Shown: positions 10,603-45,337 of the stretch, in pieces
Numbering within the stretch: the first letter of the stretch is position 1
How the letters are laid out: every line of letters begins with the position of its first letter
Source of the DNA: Candidatus Aldehydirespiratoraceae bacterium
GTDB taxonomy: Bacteria > Actinomycetota > Acidimicrobiia > Acidimicrobiales > Aldehydirespiratoraceae
Direction of reading: 5' to 3'
DNA: 64,000 nt
NCBI GenBank assembly: GCA_965221635.1
Contig: OZ244902.1
Location: 214,029-278,028, forward strand
The notes under the pieces: model-generated
Told to the model about the DNA's origin: nothing
Seen by the model: the letters and a program-made list of their open reading frames with translations, nothing else
Databases searched by the model: none
Program-made: the position numbers and the translations under genes

Positions 10603-10789
10603 GTTCAGCGGCCCTCGACCACGGCGGGGACGCGCACGCTCCGGCACCAAGTGTTGAACACGGCGACCAACATCACTGCGAGCCGCCAATGAACCGCAAC
10701 ACAGCGAACTGCACCCCAATGACCTGCACCACTGCCAAGTGTGCCAGACCCGTGCGGGCGCCCGCGGTGCAAACCGGTGTGCGGGTCGG

Positions 10790-26387: not shown

Positions 26388-26469
26388 CAGCGGCCACCCT
26401 CGGGCCGCCGCCGGGCGAGGGGCACACCAACTTCTGCGCTCGCCGCGGGGCGGGCGGTGCCGGGTTGTT

Positions 26470-27279: not shown

Positions 27280-27343
27280 CGCTTCGCCCCGAGGTGCGCC
27301 GGTGGGCCGTTTCGCGGGATTTGAAGGCGGAATCGTTGGCGCA

Positions 27344-28114: not shown

Positions 28115-28199
28115 CTCGAACCCCCGACTCCGACACCCGGCTACCAGCGACGGCTGCCGTGATCGTTGCCGGTGTTGGCGAAGTTGGCCGAGGGGTTGC

Positions 28200-29444: not shown

Positions 29445-29552
29445 GTCGCCTCCTCTTGGTGGCTTGTGGCGGGAACGGTCAGCTCCCGCCTTGATCTTGT
29501 CACCCCAGTCGTTCGAGACTGGTGCCGGGACTCAGGCCCTCATTTGGGCAGA

Positions 29553-29592
29553 CTAGCGAATCATATAGTCAATAGTCAATCGAATATCTGGT
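29553..29592. promoter_or_regulatory. AT-rich putative operator/promoter core in the divergent spacer between the GntR gene and the ABC operon
   Basis: ctagcgaatcatatagtcaatagtcaatcgaatatctgg, with tandem TAGTCAA x2. This is the only AT-rich patch in the spacer. Confidence 0.3.
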
Positions 29593-29616
29593 CGGCGGTC
29601 GTGGCATGATGTAGCC

Positions 29617-30336
29617 GTGACCTCCTCTTCAGAGTCCCCCTCGGTGGCGTCGAGCCTCTCCGCTGACGGCGTGGAGCCGGCCGCGCAGCCGTTCCGCAAA
29701 CCCAAGACCGCCCAGGAGGCGGTGCTGGCCGAGATGCGCAGGCAGCTGCTCGACGGCCGGTTGCAGCCCGGCGCCGCGGTTCGGCCCGATGCCATCGGTG
29801 AGCAGTTGGGGGTGTCCGCGGTGCCGGTGCGCGAGGCGCTGAGAATCCTCGAAGGCGAGGGTCACGTGGTGTATCGACCTCACCGCGGTTACGTGGTGGC
29901 GGCCCTCGACAGCAGCGACCTGATCGAGATTTACCGGATTCGTGAACTGCTCGAAACCGAGGCGGTGCGCACGGGCCTGCCGGAACTCACAGCGGACAAC
30001 ATTGCAGACCTAAAGGGAATCGTGGCCCAGATGGAGCAGGTTCAAGGTGACGTGCTGGCGCTCACCGAGGTGAACCGGCGCTTCCATTTCACGGTGTTCG
30101 GGGCTTCGGGCATGCCGCAGTTGGTGCGACTGTTGCGCATCCTGTGGGATTCGTCGGACCGCTACCGGGTGCGCTACCTGATGTCGCCACAGAACCGTGA
30201 ACTGGTGCACGACCAGCACATGCGGATGTTCGACGCGGCGACGCGGCGTGACACCGATGCGTTCCTCGCCGAGAGCAAACGCCACCGAGCCCACGCAATA
30301 GCCGCGCTGAGCGATCACGCAGTAGTGGGCTCGTAG
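29617..30336 (+). CDS. GntR family transcriptional regulator (FCD C-terminal domain type)
   Basis: wHTH block LGVSAVPVREALRILEGEGHVVYRPHRGYVV and an FCD-like helical C-terminal domain. Confidence 0.85.
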   Translation: MTSSSESPSVASSLSADGVEPAAQPFRKPKTAQEAVLAEMRRQLLDGRLQPGAAVRPDAIGEQLGVSAVPVREALRILEGEGHVVYRPHRGYVVAALDSSDLIEIYRIRELLETEAVRTGLPELTADNIADLKGIVAQMEQVQGDVLALTEVNRRFHFTVFGASGMPQLVRLLRILWDSSDRYRVRYLMSPQNRELVHDQHMRMFDAATRRDTDAFLAESKRHRAHAIAALSDHAVVGS

Positions 30337-30378
30337 CCCGGGCCGCCGCGGCCGGGGCCGTCACCGGGGCGGCGCGGC

Positions 30379-31980
30379 TCAGGGGCCGGTGGCGCTGCCG
30401 ATCTGAGCTCTGGGATCGGCGGCGCCCGCGAAGGTGCCTTGAGGGGTGACCTCGATGAGGTGGGCATGGCCGAAACTGTGGGGACTGTTCTCGAACACGC
30501 TCACCTGGTGTGCTCGCTTTTCGAGCCCTTCGACCCAGCCGGTTTGGTTGCCTTCGATCACCACTCGGCGGGCTTGGTGGGGGCGCCAGGTGTCGAATCC
30601 GGGGTCGTGATCGGCCGGGGCGATTATCCACCGGGCCGCTGAGATTGCCGTGCCGGGGGTTTGGCCGAGGCGCAGGGTGCGGTCGAGAAGTTGCAGCAGG
30701 ATCTGGGGTTGGGAGTCGCCGCCCATCGTGCCGAGCACCATTCGCAGGCTGTTGTCGTTGTTGGTGACCAGCGCCGGTGAGAGCGTGTGCGGTGGCCTTC
30801 GGCCTGGGCTGTACTCGGCGGGGTGGCCCGCTTCGAGGCTGAAGCCGATGCCGCGGTCGTGCAGGAAGATGCCAGTTCCGGGCGCCACCAGGTGAGCGCC
30901 GAAACCGCTGGCGTTGGAGTTGATCAGCGACACGCCCATGCCGTTTTTGTCGATGGCGCACAGGTAGGTGGTGTCGCCTGGTGTGGCGGGCGGGGTCACT
31001 TGTGATGCCCGGTCGGGGTTGATGGCGTTGCGTCGTGGTTCGAGCCGTTCGGGTGCCAGCAGCGCTTTGCCGTCGGCGCCGTCGTGGAGCACCGCCACCC
31101 TGTCTTGTGCGGCTTGTGCGGCGGCTTCCACCAGCAGGTGCGCCCACGCCGAGTTCGTGGTGTTCGGCATTTCAAGCCCGTCGGCGATCCACGCCGCAGC
31201 CAAGGTGAGATATCCCTGCGAACTCGGAGGAACAGTCCACAACACATGGCCGTGCGCTTCGACTCGCAGGGGTGCCACCCAGCGGGCCACCGGGCGGGCC
31301 AGATCGGTCTCGCTGTATTCGCCTTCGCCGAGTTGGATGAGCGCCTCGCCGAACTCGCCTCCGTAGAACCCTGCGCGGCCATGACGCAGGATCGCCTCGA
31401 GGGCTCTGGCGGTGCCGGGGCGACGGATTGTTTGCGCCGGCTTCAGGGTGGCGGGGATGTCGGTGTTGTGGGCCACCTCTGCCACTTCGCCGGCTCGTTC
31501 GGCCAGCAGCGGCGACGCCGGGAACCCGTCGGTGGCGAGCCGGATCGCCTCGGCCAGCACATCTTCCAGTGGAAGGCGCCCGAAGCGCTCGTGCAGGGCA
31601 AGCCAGCCGTCCACCGCGCCGGGCACCGTCACCGAGGCCACGTGACCCCGAAGCGGTACTTCCGTTAGGCCTTGGGTTCTGAGGCGTTGCGCGTCGGCGC
31701 CGGAGCCCGCGAACCCGGCACTGTCAAGGGCCACCGGTGGGCCTGTGCCGTTGTGAACCAGCGCCCAAACGTCACCACCGGGCCCGCACATGTGCGGCGA
31801 GGTGACAGCCAGCACGGCGTTGGCCCCCACAGCCGCATCCGCGGCCGAACCTCCACGCCGAAGTAGTTCCACTCCTGCAGCGGTGGCCAACCCGTCCACT
31901 GTTGAGACCATCCCCCGCACCGCGGTGGAAGTGAGTCCGTCCTGGTGTGTCATCAAACTCCAATCGTTTACTGACTTCAC
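30379..31980 (-). CDS. ggt: gamma-glutamyltransferase family protein
   Basis: Autoprocessing/nucleophile region PGDTTYLCAIDKNGMGVSLINSN and the C-terminal GGDSQPQ block. Confidence 0.85.
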   Translation of the reverse strand: MKSVNDWSLMTHQDGLTSTAVRGMVSTVDGLATAAGVELLRRGGSAADAAVGANAVLAVTSPHMCGPGGDVWALVHNGTGPPVALDSAGFAGSGADAQRLRTQGLTEVPLRGHVASVTVPGAVDGWLALHERFGRLPLEDVLAEAIRLATDGFPASPLLAERAGEVAEVAHNTDIPATLKPAQTIRRPGTARALEAILRHGRAGFYGGEFGEALIQLGEGEYSETDLARPVARWVAPLRVEAHGHVLWTVPPSSQGYLTLAAAWIADGLEMPNTTNSAWAHLLVEAAAQAAQDRVAVLHDGADGKALLAPERLEPRRNAINPDRASQVTPPATPGDTTYLCAIDKNGMGVSLINSNASGFGAHLVAPGTGIFLHDRGIGFSLEAGHPAEYSPGRRPPHTLSPALVTNNDNSLRMVLGTMGGDSQPQILLQLLDRTLRLGQTPGTAISAARWIIAPADHDPGFDTWRPHQARRVVIEGNQTGWVEGLEKRAHQVSVFENSPHSFGHAHLIEVTPQGTFAGAADPRAQIGSATGP

Positions 31981-33203
31981 CCAGCTTCGGCGATCCCGGC
32001 CGGCACTGGCCAGCGCAGGATGCCGGTTTCGGTTCTTGTGTCGGCTTGGGCGTAGTCGGGGTCGGCGGGGAATGCGATCCGGTGAGGGCTGTCGTCGTCG
32101 TAGCGGATTCGCACGTGCTCGTCGTGGTCGGGGGTGCCTGCGGCTGCGGCGCGCAGCGCGGCTTGGATGCTTGGGAACTTGGACAGGCGGTGCAGCATTC
32201 CGATGGTGGGGGTCATCATCACCATCTCGCCCCGGTCGTTGAGGTCGATCGCCTCCGCGGGGCGCATCCAGCGATGCTCCACTGCCTCGTCGAGGTCGGC
32301 GAGCGGTACCTGACCTTGGGGCATTGCGGTCACGAAGAAGCGGGTGTCGTAACGCCTAGGCGGGCCGAGGGGGGTCTTCCACCTTCCCACGAAATGCACC
32401 TGCGCCCCGGCGAGGCGCAAACCCTCGGCGCGCATCGTGGAGATGAAGTCCCGTTCGCCTGCGTTCACTTCCGCACGGTAAGCGCCAAATCGTCTGGCAG
32501 TTTCCGGCGGGGACAAGTCAACGATGCCGCTGTGAAGATTGTCGTCGCCGGGGAGGTGTGTGGCGACGGCCCCGGATCGCGTGCCCGAGGCCCCGGATTG
32601 CCCGCCGCCGGGCCCGGGCTGCACGGCTTCATTGCGAGTTTGCATTGGGCCATTGGCAGAGTGAGAAGAGCCGCCGGGCTCGAGGGGCTTGCCGGGTGGG
32701 GTCGGCTTGCCGGCGTGGTGCGCCGGATTGCCGGCGTGGTGTGCGAGCAGCACTCCGGCCTCCTCGAAGGTCTCGCGCAACGCCGCCACCCAGAACGCGA
32801 TGCCGCCCCGTTCAACACCAACGGCGGCCGACGCCTCCGGGTCGGTGCGACCGGCAACGGTGTCATCAGCGATCTGATCGCCGTCACGGGGATCCACCGC
32901 CCCGCCCGGGTACACCCACATGTCTCCCACGAACACGGACCGGGAGTTGCGTTTCAGCATCAGCACCTGCAGGTCGGGACGCTCCGCCAGGATCAAGATG
33001 GTGGCTGCGTCACGCACCGGCACCCCGGCCGGGTCGTAATCGCCGCCGCTTCCAGGCGAGTCCGCCCCCAGCGAAACCCGCCGACCCCAACTCACCACAA
33101 GCCCCGTCCCCCGAACCAGCCCACCAAGAGCGGCCAAAGCAGCAGATCCCCAGTCACCGCCCCATTCTCCCCCAGGCAACGACTCGTTCCGACTCGCACA
33201 CAC
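31977..33203 (-). CDS. NUDIX hydrolase with a low-complexity insertion (start uncertain)
   Basis: NUDIX box GGAVDPRDG...AALRETFEEAGVLL. ATGA overlap with ggt. The first 60 or so codons of the track ORF are Gly-rich and doubtful. Confidence 0.7.
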   Translation of the reverse strand: MCASRNESLPGGEWGGDWGSAALAALGGLVRGTGLVVSWGRRVSLGADSPGSGGDYDPAGVPVRDAATILILAERPDLQVLMLKRNSRSVFVGDMWVYPGGAVDPRDGDQIADDTVAGRTDPEASAAVGVERGGIAFWVAALRETFEEAGVLLAHHAGNPAHHAGKPTPPGKPLEPGGSSHSANGPMQTRNEAVQPGPGGGQSGASGTRSGAVATHLPGDDNLHSGIVDLSPPETARRFGAYRAEVNAGERDFISTMRAEGLRLAGAQVHFVGRWKTPLGPPRRYDTRFFVTAMPQGQVPLADLDEAVEHRWMRPAEAIDLNDRGEMVMMTPTIGMLHRLSKFPSIQAALRAAAAGTPDHDEHVRIRYDDDSPHRIAFPADPDYAQADTRTETGILRWPVPAGIAEAG

Positions 33204-33551
33204 CCCTCCTCACCGCCAACAGACCCCGATGCCACCACCCCGCCATCCCTCCGCTCGCGCACTGAGCGTGCATCGGGCAAGGCAAGCGTTGCAGCAGTGG
33301 GCTATCGGGTTGGCTGTTCACCGGAGCGCTCCCCGCGCCCGCCCGACTCCAAGGCAACCGTGCTGAATTGAACTGAGCCCTTGGAGAGCGGGGTTGCTTT
33401 GGAGTGACGGACTCGTCGAGTCTTGTGACTCTGAATCCCTGATGTGTTGGCATCTTTTGGTTTGATCATGCCATATCTATTGCACAGATACTGAGCCTGT
33501 TCATCATCTGAAGTAGTCATAGATCTCTTGAGATAAATGTTGAATTAGAGG

Positions 33552-34760
33552 TTGGTAGTGTCTCACACACCAAGTACACTTGTTCTCATGAACACAAACC
33601 CCCAAACTCTGACACAAACGGAGCATCAATCCACACTGGAGGTGCGAGTCGCCGGGCAGGATCCCACACGGTTGGGTGACGCCGATCTCGACGCCCGCAT
33701 CGTGGAGTTGGGCCGGGCACGGGCACGCCTGGACGGGATGATGGCCCAAGCCCTCGCCGAGAAACAATCCCGCGACGGCCAGCACGCCGCGGTGGAGGTG
33801 CTGCGCTGGCGGCTCAAGCTGTCCAGCACCCAGGCACAAGCCGAAACCAAACTCGCCGCAGCCCTCGCCGACGGCCTGGGCGACACCATGGCTGCGATGG
33901 CAGCCGGGGAGATCCACGCCGCGCACGCCCGGGTGATCATCAACGCCCAAGGCAACGAGGACTACCACAACGAAACCGAACTGCTGCGCATGGCCGCCAC
34001 CGAACCCCCCGACCGTCTCCGGCGCATGGTGCGCAAATGGTGGACCCCAGACCCCGACTCCAATGCACGCACCCAACGTCAGCACGACAACCGCGCCGCG
34101 TCGTTCAAACGTCAAGACGACGGCACTTGGGAACTATGGGGCCGCTTCGACACAGACACCGGCAAGATGATCAGCCTCGGCATCGCCGGCATGATGCGCC
34201 ACCTCAAGGTTTGCGAGTCCACCCGCAGCAGCCTCCCGGACGAAAGAACGCCCCAACAACGCCGAGCCGATGCCATAGCGCGTTTGTTGATCGGCGCCGA
34301 CCCGCACAAGGTCGAACACGCCACCGTGATCGTCACCGCGCAGGTCGACACCGAACAGGGCACGATCGGCGGGTTCCGCTACGACGACGGCACCCCCGTC
34401 GCCAACGAACGCCTCGGGCAGGTGCTCGCCAACGCCGATTTGGTGCCCGCAGTGTTTGACACCACCGGACGACCGTTGTGGATCGGCCGGGCACAACGAG
34501 CAGCCACCGCCGCCCAACGTTTGGCGCTGGCCGCAAGAGACGGTGGATGTGTCGGATGTGACACCCCCGCCGAGCACTGCGACGCCCACCACATCAAATG
34601 GTGGTCACAAGGCGGACCCACCGACATCGACAACCTCGCCCTGGTCTGCCCAAACTGCCACAACCAAATCCACAAAGGCGGCGCCAAAATCCGCCCCGAC
34701 CCCAACCACCCCGCCACCTACCAACTAACACCCCCACCCCAACACGCCAAAGCCGCCTAA
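33552..34760 (+). CDS. DUF222 domain / HNH endonuclease (13E12-repeat-type protein)
   Basis: C-terminal HNH: CVGCDTPAEHCDAHHIKWWSQGGPTDIDNLALVCPNCHNQIH. DUF222-like helical N-terminal region. The gene begins in an AT-rich patch. Confidence 0.85.
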   Translation: MVVSHTPSTLVLMNTNPQTLTQTEHQSTLEVRVAGQDPTRLGDADLDARIVELGRARARLDGMMAQALAEKQSRDGQHAAVEVLRWRLKLSSTQAQAETKLAAALADGLGDTMAAMAAGEIHAAHARVIINAQGNEDYHNETELLRMAATEPPDRLRRMVRKWWTPDPDSNARTQRQHDNRAASFKRQDDGTWELWGRFDTDTGKMISLGIAGMMRHLKVCESTRSSLPDERTPQQRRADAIARLLIGADPHKVEHATVIVTAQVDTEQGTIGGFRYDDGTPVANERLGQVLANADLVPAVFDTTGRPLWIGRAQRAATAAQRLALAARDGGCVGCDTPAEHCDAHHIKWWSQGGPTDIDNLALVCPNCHNQIHKGGAKIRPDPNHPATYQLTPPPQHAKAA

Positions 34761-34880
34761 CCCCCACGCCCGCTGCCCACCGCAGCCAGCGGGAAACCAC
34801 TGGGAAGACACCCACACGTCCCGAGACTTAAGGGACGGTGACTTCCTCCCGCGCCATGCAGGCGACACTCGTACCGCTGA

Positions 34881-35195
34881 TCAGGGGTTGAGCACTCTGT
34901 CGGGATTGGATTCTGCTTCCCACTCGACGTCGATGGGAGACACGATGTCGCCCAGGATCTCCATCCGTCCGCGATCAATCCCGAACAGCGTTTTGGGCTT
35001 CTGGCGGCACGGCACGAGACGGGCAGTGGGGTGGCCGTTCTTGATGATGACGATCTGCTCACCGGTGGTGGCCACTTCGTCCATGAGTTCCAGGCAGTTG
35101 GCCTTGAATTCGGACGCCTCCACGGTGCGGGGCTCAGCGGGGATGTCTGCATTGGCATCCATGTCTCGGCTCTCTTCAGGTTTGCGCAATGTCAC
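34881..35195 (-). CDS. Phd/YefM-family antitoxin-like protein, copy A (no cognate toxin gene found)
   Basis: EASEFKANCLELMDEVATTGEQIVIIKNGHPTARLVP...ILGDIVSPIDVEW. By homology to copy B the start may be the Met at 35162. Confidence 0.75.
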   Translation of the reverse strand: MTLRKPEESRDMDANADIPAEPRTVEASEFKANCLELMDEVATTGEQIVIIKNGHPTARLVPCRQKPKTLFGIDRGRMEILGDIVSPIDVEWEAESNPDRVLNP

Positions 35196-35284
35196 GAAGT
35201 TTAACGATACTCATCATTATCACCCTCGCAACGTGCGCCCAAAATCGGACCACTAACCGGTGCCAGACATCGGTGACGCGCATG

Positions 35285-35298
35285 GCAATGTGCATTGC
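35285..35298. promoter_or_regulatory. perfect inverted repeat GCAATG-TG-CATTGC, about 20 nt upstream of the RHH antitoxin start (candidate autoregulatory operator)
   Basis: Read directly at 35285-35298 in the lower-GC spacer between the divergent Phd-like copy A and mazE-like genes. Confidence 0.4.
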
Positions 35299-35317
35299 AC
35301 TTCGGTATGCTGTGGGC

Positions 35318-35566
35318 ATGGTACAATTTGTGACGCGGGTCGGGGACGAACTCGCAGATGCCGTTGACGAGCTTGTTGAGGCTGGGGTCGTTTCGAGTCG
35401 TTCCGAGGCAGTACGGCTTGGCCTTGAGCAGTTCGTGGATCGCTGTCGTCGCAATGAGATCGGGGCGCGAATCGCCCGCGGCTATCGGGCACATCCACAG
35501 CGCGACGACGAAATCGCTTGGGCCGATGAGGCGACGGTGAGGATGATCGCCGAGGAACCTTGGTGA
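35318..35566 (+). CDS. mazE: ribbon-helix-helix antitoxin (MazE/CopG-like)
   Basis: MVQFVTRVGDELADAVDELVEAGVVSSRSEAVRLGLEQF is an RHH pattern. Its end overlaps the toxin start. The track start at 35189 is judged too far upstream. Confidence 0.7.
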   Translation: MVQFVTRVGDELADAVDELVEAGVVSSRSEAVRLGLEQFVDRCRRNEIGARIARGYRAHPQRDDEIAWADEATVRMIAEEPW

Positions 35567-35880
35567 ACGTGTCGCCAAGGCAAGGCGAGATTTGGTGGGC
35601 AGAAGCCGAAGGCAAGCGACGACCGGTACTGATCGTCACACGCAGCGACGCTGTTTCGCTACTGACATGGATCGTTGTCGCGCCGGTGACACGGACCATT
35701 CGTCGGATTCCCACCGAAGTCCGGTTAGGGGCGAGTCATGGACTCCCTGAAGAGTGTGTCGCGTCATTTGACAACCTGCAGCCGATTCGACGCTCCTTCC
35801 TCACGCAACGCGTGGGGGTGCTTGGGATCGAGCAGCTTGATGAGATCTGCCGGGCGCTTCGGGCGCTTGCCGACTGTTGA
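35560..35880 (+). CDS. mazF: MazF/PemK-family mRNA interferase toxin
   Basis: RQGEIWWAEAEGKRRPVLIVTRSD...VVAPVTRTIRRIPTEV. Typical size of 106 aa. Confidence 0.8.
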   Translation: MVNVSPRQGEIWWAEAEGKRRPVLIVTRSDAVSLLTWIVVAPVTRTIRRIPTEVRLGASHGLPEECVASFDNLQPIRRSFLTQRVGVLGIEQLDEICRALRALADC

Positions 35881-36218
35881 TCTACGAGGCGCCAACCAGC
35901 AGCCGACAGCACAAGCCGGTCACGCCGATGGCAATGCCCGCCACTTCCCGGCGAGTCAGCCCCCGGGAAACCCGCAGTCCTCCACTAACCACAGACCCCG
36001 TCCCCCACGCTCGACCACCCCAGACCCCTGCCCGCAGCACACGGCACATGACCAACCCCGACGCATGGACCTGCACCACAACCCGGCACGCACACACTCC
36101 GAGAAGCCAAGTCAATGCCCAGTCGTCGGCTGGCCGTTCCTGGTTCGCGTGCGGTGACCCTGTGGAAGGGCCTCGGTGGCGTGGAGCGGGGGCGTTGGGG
36201 GCTGCGTGTTGCAGCGGC

Positions 36219-39200
36219 TTAGTAGGTGTCGGGGGGTTCGTCGGCGTACTGGCCGTAGCCGAGGCCGCTGACATGGGGTTCGCGGTGCAACAGGTGGCGT
36301 AGGTGGGCGATCTCGTCCTGGTTCCAGCCGAGCGCCTCGCAGACTGCCTCGTCCCACAGGCGGCGCACTTCACACTCGCCGTCACGGAACTGTGGCACGA
36401 TCATGTGCCGCGTCGCCTCCCAGCAATCTGCGAGGGTGGAGCGGATGTGATCGTTGTTCATGTCGGGTACGGAGAGTTGTGCTGCCATGCTGACGCTGTA
36501 TTGAGGAAAGGTCAGTTTTCGGCCGGGGCTGCGCATTACCAACAAGCGCCCGACGGTTGAGTTCAAAAACACTGCCAATGCGCAGGCAGTCTCGACACTC
36601 ACTCCGCTAACTGGAATCCAGCCATTTCCGACGTACTTCCTCTCCGACGCCAATGCCGTGAGCCGGGCACTGCCCGTGTCTTGACCCGACGAAACCAGGA
36701 GATGACTCGCCTTGGCAAGTATCGGAGGGCTACCCTGTTCCGTCCAACATCGATCCTCATTGGGTACCGCCTCAATGCGCTTCTGAGCTTCTTCACCCGT
36801 ACCCTTCAAGATGGGAAACGCTCCATACGATGTAGAACTTGAAGGGACGTAAGAGCCCCTCAACTCTCGTCCCGTGTCGTGGGCACAGAAACCCAAGTCC
36901 GACAGCGGTCTTAGGGCGTCGTGTTGAGCGAACGTTGCGGAGGCCTCCGCCAGGCCAGGGGAGCGCCAGATTGCGCCTGTCCAGTCTCCAACCGCCACGC
37001 GTTCAACGGGCCAATGAGACACTTCACCCCACCCATCATCGAGCTGTCCCATCTGTTTGCTGAGCAAGGCTGCGTGCAGCTTTGCAACTTCCAAGTCATT
37101 CTCAGGTAGGCGGTCGACACTGATCACCCTCGTGGGTGGTTTGCCAGCACCGCTCGAGAGCCGTCGTAACAGGATGATCGACTGGCTTGTGGATGTGTTT
37201 TGGCTCAAGTTTACATTCCCTGGCTGATGGCAAGTGAGCAACGTATGAACGTGGAACCGCTCAGCCAGAAGTCGGCGTTCTCGGATACCCGAAACGCTTG
37301 CAAGTGCAATGGTAGGACGTATCATCACAATCAGCCCGTCCGCATGGACCATACATCTGACGGCCAATGATACAAAGGATGGACCGAGAGAGCTCTTGTC
37401 TACAAATTCCGATAGTCTCTCGTCGGCTGCTACGAGTTGTTCCTCTAGCTTGTCCACACGGACTCGAAGTCCCCGCTGGATATGTTCAGGAAATTTCTCG
37501 CCCATCTTGGTGCGGTTGGTGAAGGGAGGGTTCATCATGATGATTCGGGTGCCCTGGACGGCATCTACTGCATCTTCAAGGACTGGATCACGCAGACTCG
37601 TGCGAATCGCCTGGGACTTCAGGGTCTCGTCGAACAGTCTTGTTTGGGATGGTGCCAGGATTTGCTTTTGGGTCAGGAGTTCGAGCGTTCCTGCTGCTAC
37701 GGGTGCGGCTGGGTCGTCTTGGGGGCCGTAGGGCATTTTGTGCAGGCCCATTTTGCGGTAGCGGATCGCGTGGTTGCCCTGGGTAAGTTGTGACGCGGCT
37801 AGCTGTAGCGACACTGGGTTGATGTCGAGGCCCTTGATCACGTCCTCCACCGCGAGCTTCTGCAGCTCGGCGAGTTCTTCGGGACTGGCGCCTTGCTCGC
37901 TGGCTCTTCTCTTCAAGTCGGTTAGCAGGGCGGCCAGCAGGGTGCCGCTTCCGCAGGCCAGGTCCACCGTCTTGTGTTCTCGCCACACGGCGGGATCGCG
38001 CCAGTTCTGATCTCCGCACACGTCGAGTGCGAGCTTGGCGGCGATCGACGCGGCGGGAGGGCGGGTGAAGTATGCGCCGTCGGAGGCTTGGTTGCCCATC
38101 ACCTTGTTAAACAGCGGCCCGGCGTGATCCGCGCCCATGTCGGCATAGGTGGATGCGATGTGCTCCGCTTCCGAAGCGAGGTGCCGCAGGGCTTGTTCGA
38201 GCCCGCCCAGCTTGCCGGTGTTCTGAACCGCGTACACCGCCTCACGGGCGGGTTCGATCACCGGCAGGAAATCCATCCGTGTGATGCGCTCCCAATTCTG
38301 GAGCAGTCGTGTGACCACGTTTGGGGCGTTCTTGATGTGCTCCAAGCCTTCGATGTTTGCAAGCCATTGGCCTGCGGCGATTCGCTGGTGGAGCATTGCA
38401 GCGTTCATCATCAACAGCGCGGCGATGGTGCAGCCGTCGGCCTGGTCCTTTCGTTTCTCGGAGTCGAGGTGGTCGAGCCCGAAGTGTTTGTCCAGAGCAG
38501 GCCGGAGTTGATCTTGGCGCAGGTGGTGGGCGGCCTCGGTGAGGCTCGCTTCAAGAAGGTTCAGGTCACGCGCCACACGATTTCCGGTGAGCCCCGACCT
38601 CGCCAGCAGGTTCACGGTGATGGCCTCGGTGAGGTCTTCGCCCACCATGCGCAGCATCTGTTGGGCGTGCTCTTCGCGCACCTCGGCAGCGGTCTTGCCC
38701 TTGCTGGTGGACGCCTTTGCGCGGAGCCTCTGACCGGCGCCGTTGTTCACCATCTTGCGGGCTTGCTTCTTGCTCTTCTCGACGTTCACCCGGCCTCGGG
38801 GTGCGCCGGCCTTGGGCTTGTCCCTAACCACGGTGTCCAGCCGCATTTCCAGCGATCCGTCGTCGTGCTGCTTGGCAGCGAGGATTTGCGTTGGTTCGGT
38901 TTCCTCGGTCCATTGCTCCGGGCGAATCGGGCCGATTCCCACCGCCTTGGGGGCACTCTTGCCGGTGGCAACCTTCTCAACGGCGTCTCGGGCGGTGTCG
39001 GGTGGTCCGATGTGGACGCCGTAGCGGATGCGCCCGGTTTGGGGGGACGGCACGGCCACCATCGTGGACACTTGGAGTTCGAGCTTGTCGGTGGGTGGTA
39101 GGTGGATCTCCAGCAGTCCCGCGAGGTTGTCCTCTATCCGTGAGTCGTGGGCACGCAACGCCAGCAGTATCTGACCCAGTTCCGTCCAGCCTTCATCGGG

Positions 39201-40697
39201 GCTGCTTGTTGTGAGCCACTGTTCGGGGTCGGCGTTGAGCGGGATCACAATGGGGCAAACGATGTAGCCCATCTTCTTGCCTTGCGCGGTGCGCATCGCC
39301 CTGCCCACGGCTTGCACCACATCCACCGGGCTCTTGCGCGGCTCCAGGAACGCCACCGCGCTCAACGTGGGGGAGTCGGTGCCCTCGCCGAAAATGCCCA
39401 CGTTCACAATCCCGTGAGGCTTGCTGAGCGTGGCCTCCGCCAAGCGCCGCTTGGCGTTGTCACGAGCCGACACGTTGCTGGTGGCGTCAAGGTGCTCCAA
39501 AGTGAAGTCCGCAGGCTCGGCGTTGGGCATTCGCTTGTTGAGCCAAGCCTTCACCGTGTCGGTTTGAAGGTCTGCGACCATGCCCTGCGATTTGGCCACG
39601 GTGTTCATGAACGCGATGCACGACTCCACCTGCACCCCCGCGTCCACACCAACCGTGGCGTTTGTGGCTTCGTCACCAGCATCCGGGTCGCCCATGTCCG
39701 CCGTGGTGTCGTTGTGGGGTCGGGTTCGGGTGGCGCCGGCCATCACCAACGCCAGTGCTAGGCCTCGCAGGTAGTCCACGGTGTTGAGCTTTGAACGGCC
39801 CTTGGACTTCGTTGCGCGCGCCAGGTGATTGGCCGCCTCGTAGGCGTCCGGGTCGTTGACCCCCAGCGCGATGATCCGGTAATCGGCAAGCCAGTCGTTC
39901 TCCACGGCTTCCACGTAGCTCTTGCGATACAGCTCCACACCGAATGTGGATTCGTCGTCCATTGAACGCACAAGGAAGTCCGACGGGCTCACGTGCCGCT
40001 TGGAGGTTGCTGCGTTGAAGATTCGTGGGGTTGCGGTTTGGTACACCCGGTAACGGGCAGGGAATGCCTTCTGATCGTGGCACAGAGTGAACTCCCGGAG
40101 CCTGTGCTGTTCGCCCTCCTTGCCGGTGTATTTCTTGCGTATTCCGGCAGTGCGGTGAGCCTCGTCGCACACCAGCACCTTCACGTCGCGGTTTGACTTC
40201 TGGAGCGCTTCAGCGACGCGCCCTGCGCTTTGGTAGGTGCCGAAGATCACGTTCACGCCATGATGGCCGCGGCCTTGGATGATCCATCTGGCGATCTCGC
40301 CGGGATCGGTGGTGACCTTGCCTTTCACCTCCGACGCGCTCACGTTGCTGGTATCCGCCGTGAGATCATTGGCGGCTCGTCGGCCCTCTTTCTTGGGGTC
40401 GTAGCCTGCGGTCTCGTCGGAACAAACGGCGAGTGCTCGGATGTCCCCCGCAGTCCGCTGGTTCTCGAGAAACTCCCGGCGAATCTGCGCCACCAGCGCG
40501 ATCGACGGGCAGAGAACTACCGACAGTTCTCCCCGATATGTGAGTTCCTCAATGATGCGAAGCGCGATTCGGGTCTTCCCGGTGCCGCACGGCAAGATGA
40601 TCCTGCCTCTGGCCTCACCGCGAGGCAGCCCGCCCGAGTCCGATTCGGCGTGCTCGCGCAATAGTCGAACACTTTTTTCCACCGCCTCGCGCTGCAT
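36219..40697 (-). CDS. SF2 DEAH helicase-like ATPase fused to a gamma-class N6-adenine DNA methyltransferase and a C-terminal target-recognition-like region (Type ISP-like, lacking its nuclease domain in this frame)
   Basis: Helicase motifs ILPCGTGKT, VLVCDEAHR, YQTATP, QAVGRAMR. MTase motifs VDLACGSGTLL and IIMMNPPF. The frame stays open and protein-like upstream of the ATG, back to the G10 tract. Confidence 0.85.
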   Translation of the reverse strand: MQREAVEKSVRLLREHAESDSGGLPRGEARGRIILPCGTGKTRIALRIIEELTYRGELSVVLCPSIALVAQIRREFLENQRTAGDIRALAVCSDETAGYDPKKEGRRAANDLTADTSNVSASEVKGKVTTDPGEIARWIIQGRGHHGVNVIFGTYQSAGRVAEALQKSNRDVKVLVCDEAHRTAGIRKKYTGKEGEQHRLREFTLCHDQKAFPARYRVYQTATPRIFNAATSKRHVSPSDFLVRSMDDESTFGVELYRKSYVEAVENDWLADYRIIALGVNDPDAYEAANHLARATKSKGRSKLNTVDYLRGLALALVMAGATRTRPHNDTTADMGDPDAGDEATNATVGVDAGVQVESCIAFMNTVAKSQGMVADLQTDTVKAWLNKRMPNAEPADFTLEHLDATSNVSARDNAKRRLAEATLSKPHGIVNVGIFGEGTDSPTLSAVAFLEPRKSPVDVVQAVGRAMRTAQGKKMGYIVCPIVIPLNADPEQWLTTSSPDEGWTELGQILLALRAHDSRIEDNLAGLLEIHLPPTDKLELQVSTMVAVPSPQTGRIRYGVHIGPPDTARDAVEKVATGKSAPKAVGIGPIRPEQWTEETEPTQILAAKQHDDGSLEMRLDTVVRDKPKAGAPRGRVNVEKSKKQARKMVNNGAGQRLRAKASTSKGKTAAEVREEHAQQMLRMVGEDLTEAITVNLLARSGLTGNRVARDLNLLEASLTEAAHHLRQDQLRPALDKHFGLDHLDSEKRKDQADGCTIAALLMMNAAMLHQRIAAGQWLANIEGLEHIKNAPNVVTRLLQNWERITRMDFLPVIEPAREAVYAVQNTGKLGGLEQALRHLASEAEHIASTYADMGADHAGPLFNKVMGNQASDGAYFTRPPAASIAAKLALDVCGDQNWRDPAVWREHKTVDLACGSGTLLAALLTDLKRRASEQGASPEELAELQKLAVEDVIKGLDINPVSLQLAASQLTQGNHAIRYRKMGLHKMPYGPQDDPAAPVAAGTLELLTQKQILAPSQTRLFDETLKSQAIRTSLRDPVLEDAVDAVQGTRIIMMNPPFTNRTKMGEKFPEHIQRGLRVRVDKLEEQLVAADERLSEFVDKSSLGPSFVSLAVRCMVHADGLIVMIRPTIALASVSGIRERRLLAERFHVHTLLTCHQPGNVNLSQNTSTSQSIILLRRLSSGAGKPPTRVISVDRLPENDLEVAKLHAALLSKQMGQLDDGWGEVSHWPVERVAVGDWTGAIWRSPGLAEASATFAQHDALRPLSDLGFCAHDTGRELRGSYVPSSSTSYGAFPILKGTGEEAQKRIEAVPNEDRCWTEQGSPPILAKASHLLVSSGQDTGSARLTALASERKYVGNGWIPVSGVSVETACALAVFLNSTVGRLLVMRSPGRKLTFPQYSVSMAAQLSVPDMNNDHIRSTLADCWEATRHMIVPQFRDGECEVRRLWDEAVCEALGWNQDEIAHLRHLLHREPHVSGLGYGQYADEPPDTY

Positions 40698-41301
40698 GCA
40701 TGTACGCGTGCGTGGCCCCTTTTCGCCGTGGCAATGCGGGCACTCGCCCCCCCCCCGCGGGGTTTTTCTGGGTTTCTGCCTCGGCTTGGATGCGCAGGTC
40801 AGCGTGGATGTTCACATGCTTGACAGGCATGTTTCGTTGGCTTCGCATCACGGATTCGTCGACGTTTGGACTCAACGGGTTGTTGCCGTTGGTGACCACC
40901 CAACGCTCCACCCAGTGGTCACCTGAGGACTCACTCAAGAACGTTCCGAGATCCTCATGGCGAATGGGCGCGCCCGCTCCGTCCAAATTGAGCTTGCGAG
41001 CTTTGCACTGGATGGCGATGAGTCCGCCGTCGGAGCGTCGCACGGCCACCCGGTCAATGCCCAGGTCGGCATCACTGCTGCCGGGGACGTACTGCTGACG
41101 CTGCGGCCACTCAGCCCACGACCAGCACTCCCTTACATCCCAGTCGGCGATGCAAGGCGCCACTTCGCTTGTGAGTTCCTCAAGCCACCTGCCATCGCTT
41201 GACTCGTAATTCTTCTCTTCAAGCGTCGCCAGCGCGTTCCCGATGAGATCCTCGCAACTGAGATCCATGCCCGAAAATTCGCTGTCAGTCCTGCCAATCA
41301 C
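40615..41301 (-). CDS. Mrr/PD-(D/E)xK-type restriction nuclease domain ORF, frameshifted away from the helicase-methyltransferase ORF
   Basis: DLGIDRVAVRRSDGGLIAIQCKARK (a D...QxK nuclease core). The GTG at 41301 overlaps the stop of Phd-like copy B (GTGA); the alternative ATG is at 41268. The sequence after the G10 tract is junk and stops at 40615. Confidence 0.7.
   Translation of the reverse strand: MIGRTDSEFSGMDLSCEDLIGNALATLEEKNYESSDGRWLEELTSEVAPCIADWDVRECWSWAEWPQRQQYVPGSSDADLGIDRVAVRRSDGGLIAIQCKARKLNLDGAGAPIRHEDLGTFLSESSGDHWVERWVVTNGNNPLSPNVDESVMRSQRNMPVKHVNIHADLRIQAEAETQKNPAGGGRVPALPRRKGATHAYMHAARGGGKKCSTIARARRIGLGRAASR
40747..40756 (-). repeat. G10 homopolymer (C10 on the plus strand) at the nuclease/helicase domain junction
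   Basis: The count is confirmed by three independent track translations crossing it: AGGGR, RPPPA and SPPPR. Confidence 0.9.
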
Positions 41302-41609
41302 GTCGTACCTGCGTGGCCTGCTCCGCTGACAGCGGGTTGAGCACTGTCGGGACTGGGTTCTTCTTCCGAGTCCGGATAGACGGGAGACACGATGTCGCCC
41401 AGGATCCTCATTCGGTGTCGATCGGCACCGAAGAAGGTCTTGGGGTTCGGGCCGCACGGCGCCAAGCGGGCCGTATGGCGGCCGTTCTTGGTGATGATGA
41501 TCTGCTCACCGGAGGCACCCACTTCATCCACGAGCTCCAGGCACTTGGCCGCGAACTCGGACGCCTCCACGGTGCGGGGCTCACCGGCGGTGTTTCCGCT
41601 TGGTTCCAT
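41298..41609 (-). CDS. Phd/YefM-family antitoxin-like protein, copy B, directly upstream of the nuclease ORF
   Basis: MEPSGNTAGEPRTVEASEFAAKCLELVDEVGASGEQIIITKNGRHTARLAP...ILGDIVSP. About 60-65% identical to copy A by eye. The track start at 41936 runs into coxM and is rejected. Confidence 0.75.
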   Translation of the reverse strand: MEPSGNTAGEPRTVEASEFAAKCLELVDEVGASGEQIIITKNGRHTARLAPCGPNPKTFFGADRHRMRILGDIVSPVYPDSEEEPSPDSAQPAVSGAGHAGTT

Positions 41610-41650
41610 GGCGCGCGTCTCCCAAGCTTCGGCGGGCCGGGGGTGGGCGG

Positions 41651-42469
41651 TTAGGAGACGCCGGCTGCTTCTAGGGCTCTTCCTGTTAGCACTCTGGCTA
41701 GGTGGGAGCGGTAATCGGGGTCGGCGTTGAGGTCGGATGGGGGTTCGAGGCCGTCGGCGGCGAGGGCCGCGGCGTCCGACGCTGACGCGCCCGAAGCGAG
41801 GGCTTGTTCCACGGCGGTGGCTCGCACGGGGGTTGAGCCCATGTTCACGAGGCTCACGCCGCTGCCGCCACCTGCCACCGCTACACCCACGATTGCCCAG
41901 TCCTGGGCACGGCGGTTGAACTTCTGGTAGTTCCAACCGCCGGCGGATGCGGGCACACGCACCTCGGTGATCATCTCGTCCTCGGCCAGAACCGACTCGA
42001 AATAACCGCTGAAGAAATCCGTTGCCGCTATGTCACGCGACCCGCGGGGGCCACGCGCTGTGATGGTGCCGCCAAGGGCCAACACCACCGCCGGCAGATC
42101 CGAAGCCGGGTCCGCGTGAGCGAGCGTGCCACCAAGGGTTCCCCGGTGACGCACCGCCGGGTCGCCCACCAGCGCCGCAACCGACGCCAGGATCGGGCAC
42201 GCCTCGGCCAGCAGATCCGAATGCTCCAGTTCGCTGTGACGGGTGAGCGCCCCGATGGCGATGCTGCCGTTGGATTGGCGGATGTAACGCAAGTCGTCGA
42301 GACGGCCCACGTCCACCAGCACCGACGGCGTGGCCAGCCGGTAACGCATCATCGGGATCAGGCTGTGACCCCCGGCGAGCAGTTTGGCCTCGTCACCGTG
42401 CTCGGCGAGCAACGCAACGGCGTGCTCGGCCGATTCGGCGACCTCGTAGTCGAAAGCGGCGGGAATCAC
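41651..42469 (-). CDS. FAD-binding medium subunit of a xanthine dehydrogenase/CO dehydrogenase-family molybdoenzyme (CoxM/CutM-like)
   Basis: IPAAFDYEVAESAEHAVALLAEHGDEAKLLAGGHSLIPMM. The GTG at 42469 overlaps the large-subunit stop (GTGA). Confidence 0.85.
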   Translation of the reverse strand: MIPAAFDYEVAESAEHAVALLAEHGDEAKLLAGGHSLIPMMRYRLATPSVLVDVGRLDDLRYIRQSNGSIAIGALTRHSELEHSDLLAEACPILASVAALVGDPAVRHRGTLGGTLAHADPASDLPAVVLALGGTITARGPRGSRDIAATDFFSGYFESVLAEDEMITEVRVPASAGGWNYQKFNRRAQDWAIVGVAVAGGGSGVSLVNMGSTPVRATAVEQALASGASASDAAALAADGLEPPSDLNADPDYRSHLARVLTGRALEAAGVS

Positions 42470-44862
42470 GACGCACCTCCTTGTGCAGCGGCGATGGTTT
42501 TCCACACGGTTTGGGGCGATGCGGGCATCGCCACGTCGGTCACGCCCAACGGGCGCAAGGCGTCCACGATGGCGTTGATCACGGCAGGCGTGGCGGCAAT
42601 CGTGCCGGCCTCGCCCACACCTTTCACGCCCATCGGGTTGGTCGGGCTGGGCGTGGAATGGCTGCCCAGCCGGTAGCGGGGCGCCTCAGCGGCCGACGGC
42701 ACCAGATAGTCGCCAAGGTTGGCGGTGACAAGCTGGCCGTCGTCGGTGTACACGGCGTCCTCGTAAAGGGCCTGAGCGGCGCCTTGGAGGATCCCGCCGT
42801 GTACCTGGCCTTCCACTATCAGCGGGTTCACCTGCACTCCACAGTCGTCCACGGCCACGTAATCCACCATGGTGGTGTCGCCGGTGTCGGTGTCCACCTC
42901 CACCACCGCAATGTGGGTGCCGTTGGGGAACGTGAAGTTGGGCGGGTCGTAGCTGACGTGCGCCTCAAGGTTGGGTTCCATCCCGTCGGGAAGGTCATGC
43001 GCGGCGAACGCACCGAAGGCGATCTCCGCGAACGCCTTTGCCTCGGTGGGCGTGCCCCGCACCCGGAAGCTGCCATCCACATACTCGAGGTCGTCGGGGT
43101 TGGCCTCAAGTTGGTGAGCGGCGATCAGGCGGGCCTTGTCGAGCACCTTGTCGGTGGCCATGAACACAGCAGTTCCGCCCACCGCCAGCGAACGAGACCC
43201 GTAGGTGTCCATGCCGGTTGGGCTTATCGCCGTGTCCGAATGCAGCACCTCAACGTCATCAGGGTCGATGCCGAGCTTGTCGGCAACGATCATCGACCAG
43301 CACGTCTCGTGGCCCTGACCGTGAGGCGTGGAACCGGTGACAACCTGCACCTTGGCGGTGGGAAGCACCCGAACCGTGGCCGCCTCCCAGCCCCCGGCGC
43401 CGTAACTGAGCGAAGCCAGCACCCGGCTCGGGGCCAGGCCGCACATCTCCACGTAACTGGACAAACCCACGCCGATCTGACGAGACGAACCATCCGCGCG
43501 ACGACGGGCCTGCTCGGCGCGCACGTCGTCGAGCCCGGCGAGCGCCACGGCCTTGTCGAGCACGGCGTGATAGTCGCCGCTGTCGAAAATCAGCCCGGCG
43601 CACGACTCGTAGGGGAACTTGTCCGCCGGAATGAAGTTGCGGGCCCGGATCTCCTCGGGGCTGACTCCCACCTCAACGGCAAGCGAATCCATCGCACGCT
43701 CGATCGCGTAGGTGGCCTCGGGACGACCCGCGCCACGGTAGGCGTCGGTTGGGGTTTTGTTGGTGAACACCGACGTACACACAAACGAGTAGTGCGGGAT
43801 GTCGTAGCACCCGTGATACAGGAACGCCCCCAGCAGCGGAATGCCCGGGGTGACGAGCTGCAGGTAGGCGCCCATGTCGGCAACCAGCTTCACCCGCACC
43901 GCGGACACCTTGCCCGCCGCGTCGGCGGCTAATTCGATGTTCTGCACCTGGCCGCGGCCTTGAATGGTGGCCAGCGCAGCCTCGGCGCGGCTTTCGGTCC
44001 AGCGGACCGGCGCGCCACGCTGCATAGCCAGCGCGCAGCACAGGATCTCCTCGGCGTACACGTTCAGCTTGCAGCCGAAACCGCCGCCCACCGAAGGGGC
44101 CACCACCCGCAGCTTGTGCTCGGGGATGCCCAAGGTGACCGCGGTCATCACCTTGAGAACGTGCGGTATCTGCGTGGCCGAGTACAACGTGAGGTCGCCA
44201 CCAACCGGCGCGGGCACCGCGGCAACACCACGGGGCTCCATCGGCGCCGGGATCAGACGCTGCTGCACGTAACGCTCGCTGATCACCACCTCGGCGGCGT
44301 CAAACGCGGCTTGCACGGCGTCGGCGTCGGGGGTGAGTTCCCACGTGTAGCTCTCGTTGGTGCCCAACGACTCGTGTACCAGCGGGGCGCCCTCGGCCAA
44401 AGCGGCCTCTATGTCCACCACCGCTGGTTTCGGGGCGTACTCCACGGCCACCGCGGCGGCGCCGTCGGCGGCGGCGTAACGCGAATCGGCGAGCACCACC
44501 GCAACGGCGTCGCCCACGTACTTGGCTTCCTCCGTGGCCACGGGCAGGTGCGCCGGGTTGCGCATGTCCGGGGTTACCGGCCAGGCGCAAGGCAGCGCCC
44601 CGCCGCCCCAAAGGTCGGCAAGGTCGGCGCCGCTGAGCACCTCGTTCACGCCGTCGATCGCCAGCGCGGCCGAACCGTCCACCGACACGATCGCGGCGTT
44701 GGCCTCGGTGGAACGCACAACACCCACCCAGATCGCTCCGGGCAGCGCAAGGTCGTCTATGAAGGCGGCCTCGCCGGTGAGCAGCGCGGGGTCCTCACGG
44801 CGCAGGCGCCGAGAACCCACATGGGCCGCAGGCGGGGCTTCGGTGACGGTCATCTCAGCCAC
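42466..44862 (-). CDS. molybdopterin-binding large subunit, CoxL form II-like
   Basis: 798 aa. The active-site loop reads AYRGAGR (form II type) rather than the AYxCSFR loop of bona fide CO dehydrogenases. Confidence 0.85.
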   Translation of the reverse strand: MAEMTVTEAPPAAHVGSRRLRREDPALLTGEAAFIDDLALPGAIWVGVVRSTEANAAIVSVDGSAALAIDGVNEVLSGADLADLWGGGALPCAWPVTPDMRNPAHLPVATEEAKYVGDAVAVVLADSRYAAADGAAAVAVEYAPKPAVVDIEAALAEGAPLVHESLGTNESYTWELTPDADAVQAAFDAAEVVISERYVQQRLIPAPMEPRGVAAVPAPVGGDLTLYSATQIPHVLKVMTAVTLGIPEHKLRVVAPSVGGGFGCKLNVYAEEILCCALAMQRGAPVRWTESRAEAALATIQGRGQVQNIELAADAAGKVSAVRVKLVADMGAYLQLVTPGIPLLGAFLYHGCYDIPHYSFVCTSVFTNKTPTDAYRGAGRPEATYAIERAMDSLAVEVGVSPEEIRARNFIPADKFPYESCAGLIFDSGDYHAVLDKAVALAGLDDVRAEQARRRADGSSRQIGVGLSSYVEMCGLAPSRVLASLSYGAGGWEAATVRVLPTAKVQVVTGSTPHGQGHETCWSMIVADKLGIDPDDVEVLHSDTAISPTGMDTYGSRSLAVGGTAVFMATDKVLDKARLIAAHQLEANPDDLEYVDGSFRVRGTPTEAKAFAEIAFGAFAAHDLPDGMEPNLEAHVSYDPPNFTFPNGTHIAVVEVDTDTGDTTMVDYVAVDDCGVQVNPLIVEGQVHGGILQGAAQALYEDAVYTDDGQLVTANLGDYLVPSAAEAPRYRLGSHSTPSPTNPMGVKGVGEAGTIAATPAVINAIVDALRPLGVTDVAMPASPQTVWKTIAAAQGGAS

Positions 44863-45337
44863 CTCCGTTGTCTGCGCCTGCCACCTCCAGCACGGCGTCG
44901 ACGATGTTCTGATAGCCGGTGCAGCGGCACAGGTTGCCTTCGAGGCCGTGGCGCACGCCGTGCTCGTCGAGGTTCGGGTATTCGTCCACCAGCGAAACCG
45001 CTGCCATCACCATGCCCGGAGTGCAGTATCCGCACTGCAGGCCGTGGTTGGTGTGGAAGGACTGTTGCATCGGGTGCAACTCACCGTCTCCGGAGGCGAG
45101 TCCCTCGATGGTGGTTATGTCGGCGCCGTCGGCTTGCACCGCGAACATGGTGCAGGACTTCACCGAACGGCCGTCCACCAGGATCGTGCAAGCACCGCAA
45201 CTGCTGGAATCGCAGCCGATGTTGGTGCCGGTGAGGCCCATGTCGTCACGCAGGGCATGCACCAGCAACGTGCGGGGCTCGGTGGTGATCGTGCGGTCGG
45301 CGCCGTTGACAGTCATGGTCACGGTGTTCATAGGCAC
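44855..45337 (-). CDS. [2Fe-2S]-binding small subunit (CoxS/CutS-like)
   Basis: CDSSSCGACTILVDG and CGYCTPGM cluster motifs. Confidence 0.9.
   Translation of the reverse strand: MPMNTVTMTVNGADRTITTEPRTLLVHALRDDMGLTGTNIGCDSSSCGACTILVDGRSVKSCTMFAVQADGADITTIEGLASGDGELHPMQQSFHTNHGLQCGYCTPGMVMAAVSLVDEYPNLDEHGVRHGLEGNLCRCTGYQNIVDAVLEVAGADNGGG

Follow-up and report, generated by a model that had tools for sequence, protein, structure and literature searches.

We analysed a stretch of 64,000 nucleotides from a Candidatus Aldehydirespiratoraceae bacterium (contig OZ244902.1, positions 214,029 to 278,028; the window, whose own numbering is used here), in which a Type ISP-like restriction-modification (R-M) gene is split into two overlapping open reading frames (ORFs) on the minus strand. 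The upstream ORF encodes an Mrr-like nuclease domain in its native frame (40757-41268), with ATG 41268 as the probable start and GTG 41301 as the start in the public annotation. The downstream ORF (36219-40697) encodes 1,492 amino acids comprising a superfamily 2 (SF2) translocase, a coupler, a gamma-type N6-adenine methyltransferase (MTase) and a target recognition domain (TRD). The frameshift site is a G10 homopolymer on the minus strand (40747-40756), which we consider a candidate slipped-strand switch.

The nuclease domain is recognised by the Pfam family Mrr_cat_2 (5.6e-14) and aligns with residues 74-163 of LlaBIII. Its catalytic residues, in GID (41047-41061) and IQCK (41002-41013), are of the PD-QxK type, the form typical of Type ISP nucleases (PMC3874165), and D72, Q87 and K89 do not vary across the family. 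The downstream ORF matches Pfam ResIII and Helicase_C and carries the translocase motifs GTGKT (40572-40586), DEAH (40155-40166), QTATP (40026-40040) and GRAMR (39291-39305) on the minus strand, with MTase motif I, DLACGSG (37944-37964), lying upstream of motif IV, NPPF (37521-37532). LlaGI and LlaBIII were its only sequence matches in the PDB (E = 1.5e-45 and 8.7e-45), and a family profile built from 31 members matched LlaBIII at 9.6e-75, colinearly over residues 69-661, i.e. the nuclease and the whole ATPase. Sequence-profile matches of the C-terminal 823 residues were weak, this part being too diverged, and no LlaBIII-like MTase-TRD was detected by sequence-profile search of the C-terminal half. 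Structure prediction was run on database proteins; the AF2 model of the C-terminal 823 amino acids (pLDDT 80, pTM 0.78) retrieved BpuSI, CamA, PglX/BrxX, M.BseCI and LlaBIII with Foldseek, all at a probability of 1.00.

Both window ORFs also match, in colinear order, a single 1,646-position profile for single-chain R-M proteins in PADLOC. This best profile is labelled REase_MTase_IIG and is matched through its nuclease and helicase parts; a Type IIG identity was ruled out by the complete SF2 ATPase of ~600 residues between nuclease and MTase. Type ISP enzymes are defined by their module order (PMC3874165), and at this locus an N-terminal Mrr-like PD-(D/E/Q)xK nuclease is followed by an SF2 translocase homologous to those of LlaGI and LlaBIII and then, judging from the fold model and the motifs, by a gamma-class N6-adenine MTase and a putative C-terminal TRD. 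The predicted architecture is therefore that of a Type ISP enzyme with a diverged MTase-TRD half. Biochemically, Type ISP enzymes translocate at the expense of ATP, cleave where enzymes coming from head-to-head sites collide and methylate one strand of an asymmetric site. Only the single uninterrupted chain is missing from the sequence as assembled, in which two ORFs overlap at the G10 tract, and the window contains a single-chain gene in the form of a frameshifted allele.

The tract appears on the plus strand as C10 at 40747-40756. Its context on the coding strand is CAGAAAAACCCCGC-G10-CGAGTGCCC, and the minus strand reads CAGAAAAACCCCGC-GGGGGGGGGG-CGAGTGCCCGCATTGC across the junction. From either start the nuclease frame is protein-like until QKNPAGGG; past the tract it turns into the degenerate RVPALPRRKGATHAY and stops at 40615, giving an out-of-frame tail of 43 amino acids (RVPALPRRKG...AASR, 40615-40746, ending at TGA 40617-40615) that shares 83 nucleotides with the start of the downstream ORF. 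The translocase (+1) frame is open from 40811, its translation including GGGECPHCHGEKGPRTRTCMQREAV and GGGECPHCHGEKGPRTRTC-MQREAV, and its first start codon is ATG 40697, from which the 1,492-residue ORF runs to 36219. Deletion of a single G (G9) fuses the two into one ORF of 1,693 codons from 41301 to 36219, and G12 gives the same frame; the reading from 41301 stops after 228 codons with G10 and after 261 codons with G11. The tract falls in the linker between nuclease and translocase, that is, between the Mrr_cat_2 match (residues 45-155 of the protein from ATG 41268) and the ResIII match (from residue 1 of the ORF from ATG 40697). Unbroken alignment of the G9 model with LlaBIII across the junction places it near LlaBIII residue 163. 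A preliminary description of this DNA had proposed a Type ISP-like single-chain R-M gene with a C10/G10 run at the nuclease/helicase junction, a nuclease frame degenerating to the stop at 40615, a helicase frame open before its first ATG, and one continuous frame at G9 or G12. Each of these points is borne out by the sequence, its translations and the domain, motif and fold comparisons above.

This G10 is the only homopolymer longer than 7 nucleotides in the window, the next being two G7 runs, with C runs otherwise reaching 6 at most. A model of independent and identically distributed bases at 67% GC predicts ~0.8 C runs and ~0.6 G runs of at least 10 nucleotides per window, but the observed run lengths collapse after 6-7 nucleotides. 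The tract is an outlier in the window because this empirical fall-off is far steeper than in the model. GGG is a minor glycine codon here, accounting for 14% of glycine codons. CCCCGC lies directly 5' of the tract on the coding strand and creates a palindrome, CCCCGCGGGG, at the 5' edge of the tract (40747-40765). The plus strand over the same 40747-40765 scores as a terminator-like hairpin in a consensus scan, but the regional count of such matches is not above that in shuffled sequence, and a promoter and terminator scan around the junction likewise gave no excess over the shuffle expectation.

Homologues of the gene were collected as 80 loci from species-representative genomes at 51-62% identity, or 81 with one further locus (L081). 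Nearly all their hosts are sponge-associated metagenome-assembled genomes (MAGs) of Dehalococcoidia, Acidimicrobiia, Caldilineaceae, Poribacteria, Gammaproteobacteria, Nitrospirales, Rhodothermales and other groups. A single ORF of more than 1,550 amino acids, colinear with the G9 model, is present in 65 of the 81 loci, and in most of the loci the model aligns in one frame over almost its full length. In the junction alignment the homologues match the nuclease-frame peptide as far as the tract, and directly behind the tract, beginning with the first codon, they match the translocase-frame peptide. As homology continues right up to the tract on both sides, the frame switch lies within the tract itself. 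The same alignment reveals a conserved linker after the tract, E-CPHC-...-(Q/R)T(K/R)(T/S)-C-MQ-xEA, whose window counterpart in the translocase frame (GGECPHCHGEKGPRTRTC, 40698-40751, minus strand) is left untranslated when the tract is G10. All 31 sequences of the family alignment (A1) share the Met of ATG 40697 and the Gln after it. We read ATG 40697 as an internal Met of a longer protein because a conserved in-frame linker (ECPHC...RTRTC-MQ) precedes this invariant residue, in agreement with the preliminary description. The CxHC motif and the Cys before MQ are both present in 60 sequences, both absent from 20 and discordant in 2, which suggests a small metal-binding or disulfide unit, one that LlaBIII lacks in the alignment.

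A two-gene architecture, which homologues of 400-725 amino acids might have indicated, was ruled out, these being copies truncated by insertion sequence (IS) insertion, low-coverage indel errors or tract frameshifts. Many homologue ORFs (L004, L006, L011, L014, L024, L025, L029, L052 and others) run ~100-150 codons past the end of the window protein (1,780-1,840 versus 1,682 amino acids), through either a C-terminal extension or read-through. The window copy retains every family-invariant residue in both halves and has one lesion in 5,050 nucleotides. Since the rest of these 5 kb is intact, the lesion is either single and recent or reversible.

The tract in the window is one of 13 in the family. 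Twelve further G/C runs of 9-22 nucleotides were found in homologues of the gene, 4 of them in frame (ON) and 8 at frame changes (OFF), and the homologues that bear them span at least seven orders or classes. Eight came from the 80 homologue loci (L018, L056, L021, L040, L060, L015, L044 and L041); the other four (L083-L086) are truncated homologues chosen from a protein search for their poly-Gly- or poly-Pro-like tails, each of which breaks exactly at a long run, two of the four being from short-read (Logan) assemblies. We mapped all tracts onto the window protein, counting the Met of MDLS as 1. The window G10 lies at position ~173 (OFF), and a G13 in the same linker, at ~180, is ON (L018, 6505-6517). 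Towards the middle of the protein every tract is OFF: G15 at ~336 (L083, 3024-3038), G15 at ~490 (L086, 1584-1598), three at ~578-588 (G14 in L056, 7667-7680; C20 in L084, 7728-7747; G13 in L085, 2313-2325) and two at ~775-796 (C19 in L021, 8262-8280; C22 in L040, 8255-8276). Further on, G10 at ~1310 (L060, 9817-9826) and two tracts at ~1376 (C16 in L015, 10253-10268; C10 in L044, 10178-10187) are ON, and C9 at ~1515 (L041, 10530-10538) is OFF. Together the 13 tracts occupy at least eight sites, 4 in the ON and 9 in the OFF state. Neither glycine codons nor a G run occur in any homologue at exactly the position of the window tract, where the linker is variable in the junction alignment.

Such runs are concentrated in the gene itself. 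Among the homologue loci, 8 G/C runs of at least 10 nucleotides fall in 402 kb of gene and none in 665 kb of flanks (binomial p = 4e-4); at a threshold of at least 9 nucleotides the counts are 9 and 2. Independent Acidimicrobiales DNA (1.28 Mb), taken as background, contains four G/C runs of at least 9 nucleotides, namely a C11 (L089, 19969-19979), a C14 (L095, 17022-17035), a G11 (L101, 7057-7067) and a C9 (L106, 10860-10868). For the ORFs in or beside the first three, Pfam returned nothing informative; they may represent additional switchable genes. Sequencing error may lengthen or shorten a tract, but runs of 13-22 nucleotides cannot arise from it, and codon usage does not predict them either. 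The window tract is a frame-shifting repeat within an ORF and long enough for hypermutability, and it belongs to a family in which tracts are over-represented and have arisen independently in ON and OFF states. Independent tracts at different sites and in different phyla, in both frame states, are, as far as sequence can tell, the classical signature of a contingency locus.

We therefore favour, with a probability of roughly 0.55, the reading that the Type ISP-like R-M gene is a slipped-strand contingency locus that is OFF (+1) in the sequenced population. In this model a horizontally acquired gene carries a slippage-prone G tract in the linker between nuclease and translocase, and the sequenced population would have 10 G's, one in excess. 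Translation begun at the native start would end after the 174-residue nuclease domain and the 43-residue nonsense tail, leaving the full enzyme OFF, while gain or loss of G's during replication (to G9 or G12) would restore a 1,682-residue enzyme from ATG 41268 (ON). Restriction would thereby be switched stochastically, and the window tract would be one case of a family-wide habit of acquiring independent G/C runs in permissive loops and linkers of the same gene. We infer that in this population tract length changes often enough to be useful and that selection favours switching. The 8-G tract of Streptomyces coelicolor pglX switches at 1e-2 to 1e-3 from ON to OFF and at 1e-3 to 1e-4 from OFF to ON (PMC4365076), and in Helicobacter pylori tracts of more than 8 bp are taken as switching (PMC3936762). 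By analogy, such switching is plausible for the window tract. Phase variation was one of three readings offered by the preliminary description, beside an assembly error and a fixed inactivating frameshift. It has gained from the pglX precedent and from the recurrent, independent tracts in homologues, whose support is strong if indirect, while the assembly error has been weakened by a second assembly with G10.

That second assembly was reached with a C-terminal query, which returned an identical protein of 907 amino acids on a 21-kb contig of ENA ERZ26695579 (L087; the contig name ends 2.04x). It is from the same strain, being syntenic with window 26222-45215; over these 19 kb there is no mismatch, and the nine differences are all 1-nt indels, 8 of them extra bases in L087. 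The L087 tract (4462-4471) is also G10. A third contig (L088), which again belongs to another ENA analysis, covers only window 37026-39247 and is identical save for three 1-nt indels in 2.2 kb. Both contigs have ~2x coverage, and their indels fragment CoxL, the R-M gene and the DUF222-HNH gene. Agreement between L087 and the window is only moderate evidence, because L087 is error-prone (one indel per 2 kb, mostly extra bases). An exact-pattern search for the tract flanks in contigs of species-representative genomes gave no match, and a scan of metagenome contigs gave one short, irrelevant match only.

On this evidence it is rather unlikely that the extra G is an error of the consensus, with a true tract of G9, an intact gene, one 1,682-residue enzyme and nothing OFF. 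Long-read consensus is least reliable at 10-nt runs, the extra bases in L087 show the error mode of such data, and no other flaw is seen in the gene. The protein collection also contains many truncated homologues that break at random non-repeat positions, where indel errors would place the breaks, and these breaks may be artefacts like those of L087. Set against this, the same G10 was recovered in two assemblies from different ENA analyses, and the CoxL, CoxM, GGT and DUF222-HNH genes of the window are all full length. The homologue tracts of 13-22 nucleotides, short-read assemblies included, also stand both in and out of frame, so that frame-breaking tract lengths are common in the family. 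The readings overlap in any case: even with a true G9 the tract stays a candidate switch. Unlikely, too, is a fixed frameshift in a young pseudogene heading for loss, with the tract as its most mutable breakpoint. G10 in both assemblies, the homologue loci disrupted away from repeats and the position of the gene in a strain-specific island, absent from the nearest relatives, would fit such a fate. One lesion in 5,050 nucleotides, an open ORF of 1,492 codons and the retention of all invariant residues fit it poorly, a 10-G tract would readily revert in actinomycetes at the pglX rates (PMC4365076), and the enrichment of long tracts in the gene family is unexpected under neutral decay. Recoding, by transcriptional slippage or by +1 ribosomal frameshifting on GGG-G, would yield a short nuclease fragment and some full-length enzyme. 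Long homopolymers are known slippage sites of RNA polymerase and ribosomes, and the shift needed here is +1 on a run of GGG codons. We nevertheless consider recoding very improbable, as no homologue conserves the tract at the window site, where the linker is variable, the position, length and base (G or C) of the tracts vary among homologues, unlike those of conserved programmed sites, and the junction scan found no stimulatory structure.

Several observations weigh against the contingency locus that we favour. Disruptions affect about 13 of the 81 homologue loci and in several of them involve no repeat: L081 is cut by an IS insertion, and L026, L028 and L035 have premature stops without a visible frame change. 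The family thus decays by other routes, so that loss of the gene can simply begin with a frameshift at a tract. The insertion in L081 is of the IS3 type (10043-11202, HTH_Tnp_1 and rve) and leaves a product of 676 amino acids on a 4.15-Mb contig; a small HEPN-like gene precedes this homologue. The two assemblies that cover the window tract are both G10, with no length polymorphism between them, and no G9-type or full-length product was found in a collection of 5.8 billion protein clusters. Both assemblies appear to be long-read metagenomic, judging from contig naming and indel-only differences, so a shared homopolymer bias is possible. Finally, the closest relative that carries the gene is at ~62% identity, and with none above this value orthologous tract lengths are not comparable.

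The position of the tract suggested a further possibility to the preliminary description, which proposed that a translatable helicase-methyltransferase remains in the OFF state. The G10 allele would then still make a 1,492-residue translocase-MTase-TRD protein from the internal Met, a natural equivalent of LlaGI deltaN, with methylation on and cleavage off. If so, the genome would stay methylated in the OFF state and the return to ON would carry no risk of self-restriction. Biochemically the idea is plausible by analogy. LlaGI deltaN is an active translocase (PMC4872093), the downstream ORF begins ~5 residues after the engineered deltaN start, and HP0669, the MTase-TRD fragment that remains of an H. 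pylori ISP gene broken by frameshifts, has MTase activity (PMC3936762). We found no support for it in the sequence, however, and consider it improbable. ATG 40697 has no element resembling a Shine-Dalgarno (SD) sequence at a usable distance, the sole AAGGGG ending 19 nt upstream, although its absence is uninformative because the neighbouring gene starts that were checked also have no clear SD. The upstream ORF ends 80 nt downstream of ATG 40697. A product from this codon would lose the conserved CxHC...C linker element, and the homologue tracts are scattered over all modules with no preference for the nuclease boundary.

The R-M gene lies in an accessory island of ~9.7 kb (31981-41650), together with an RHH/antitoxin-like ORF (35189-35566) and a DUF222-HNH gene (33552-34760), both assigned by Pfam. 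Gene calling on L087 gives a PhdYeFM antitoxin gene in the matching part of the island. The island is flanked by a CoxM-like gene (41651-42505) and by a gene for gamma-glutamyltranspeptidase (GGT, 30379-31980). In four related Acidimicrobiales MAGs (L093, L094, L096 and L105) CoxM is followed directly by GGT. GC content is 0.60-0.64 at 34-42 kb, across the R-M gene and the DUF222-HNH/RHH part, versus ~0.67 elsewhere in the window, and the CoxL- and CoxM-like neighbours are 83-86% identical to those of sponge-derived Acidimicrobiales and Candidatus Aldehydirespiratoraceae MAGs. Judged by this sequence setting, the R-M gene is a recent horizontal acquisition, because it is inserted between genes that are adjacent in relatives and has a lower GC content. 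The 350 nt that separate CoxM from the R-M start probably encode no protein. An ORF of 212 codons (41298-41936, minus strand), whose stop overlaps GTG 41301 as GTGA, was considered as a coupled partner and rejected, being Arg/Pro-rich alternate-frame junk with no homologue.

The closest characterised enzymes are LlaGI and LlaBIII from Lactococcus lactis plasmids (PDB 5FFJ and 4XQK), which likewise join an Mrr-like PD-QxK nuclease, an SF2 translocase, a gamma-type MTase and a TRD in one chain. The window protein is ~100 residues longer, and its MTase-TRD half is beyond detection by sequence from LlaBIII, its fold ranking nearer to BpuSI, CamA and PglX. Its family differs from the lactococcal enzymes in the extra CxHC...C element of the nuclease-translocase linker, in its hosts, sponge-associated bacteria of many phyla, and in its putatively hypermutable G/C tracts, for which the papers we examined give no report in LlaGI or LlaBIII. 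A close precedent for the proposed switching is pglX of the Pgl/BREX system in S. coelicolor, which also has a poly-G tract in a defence adenine-MTase gene of a high-GC actinobacterium, and the C-terminal half of the window protein has PglX/BrxX among its top structural matches. High-frequency ON/OFF switching by contraction and expansion of the tract has been demonstrated for pglX (PMC4365076), whereas for the window gene it is inferred from sequence. PglX is, moreover, one component of a multi-gene, nuclease-free system, whereas the window chain also has a nuclease and a motor.

In H. pylori single-chain Type IIG R-M enzymes (JHP1272 / HP1353-1354) are switched by C/G runs (PMC3936762), but these enzymes have no translocase. 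The frameshift-broken ISP-type gene HP0667-0669 of this species is stated to have its breaks away from repeats (PMC3936762). H. pylori is also a low-GC pathogen with repeats throughout its genome, whereas for the family of the window gene tracts are rare outside the gene. Phasevarions (Type III mod, Type I hsdM/hsdS) share stochastic, reversible expression through simple-sequence repeats (PMC12707154). They are multi-subunit systems, mostly of host-adapted pathogens, in which the MTase or specificity subunit is usually switched; the window gene, in contrast, holds the whole restriction, modification and specificity activity in one ORF, and the tracts of its family may lie in any module. The preliminary description was not aware of phase variation in single-polypeptide ISP-type enzymes. 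Consistent with this, the portions of the literature on Type ISP and phase-variable systems available to us contain no report of repeat-driven switching of such an enzyme, and literature searches on homopolymers or phase variation in connection with restriction-modification of sponge symbionts returned nothing relevant.

Repeat-driven phase variation is already established for R-M systems of Types I, IIG and III and for BREX/Pgl, mostly in host-adapted pathogens. If our reading is correct, an ATP-dependent, single-chain ISP-type family would join this list, and the phenomenon would extend to a further type of enzyme and a further ecological setting. Should the uncoupling of methylation from cleavage also hold, the ISP-like family of sponge-symbiont phyla would consist of modular switches, in which linker tracts uncouple nuclease, motor and methylase. 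Public annotation presents the window gene as two products, of 228 amino acids (from GTG 41301) and 1,458 amino acids (from an internal TTG). With the gene annotated as two unrelated ORFs and many homologues fragmented, defence surveys of these MAGs will under-count them. The tract-bearing family has spread by horizontal transfer among sponge-associated Chloroflexota, Actinomycetota, Gammaproteobacteria, Nitrospirales, Rhodothermales and others, and, if it is indeed phase-variable, this would suggest that stochastic switching of restriction is a common strategy in dense, phage-rich symbiont communities.

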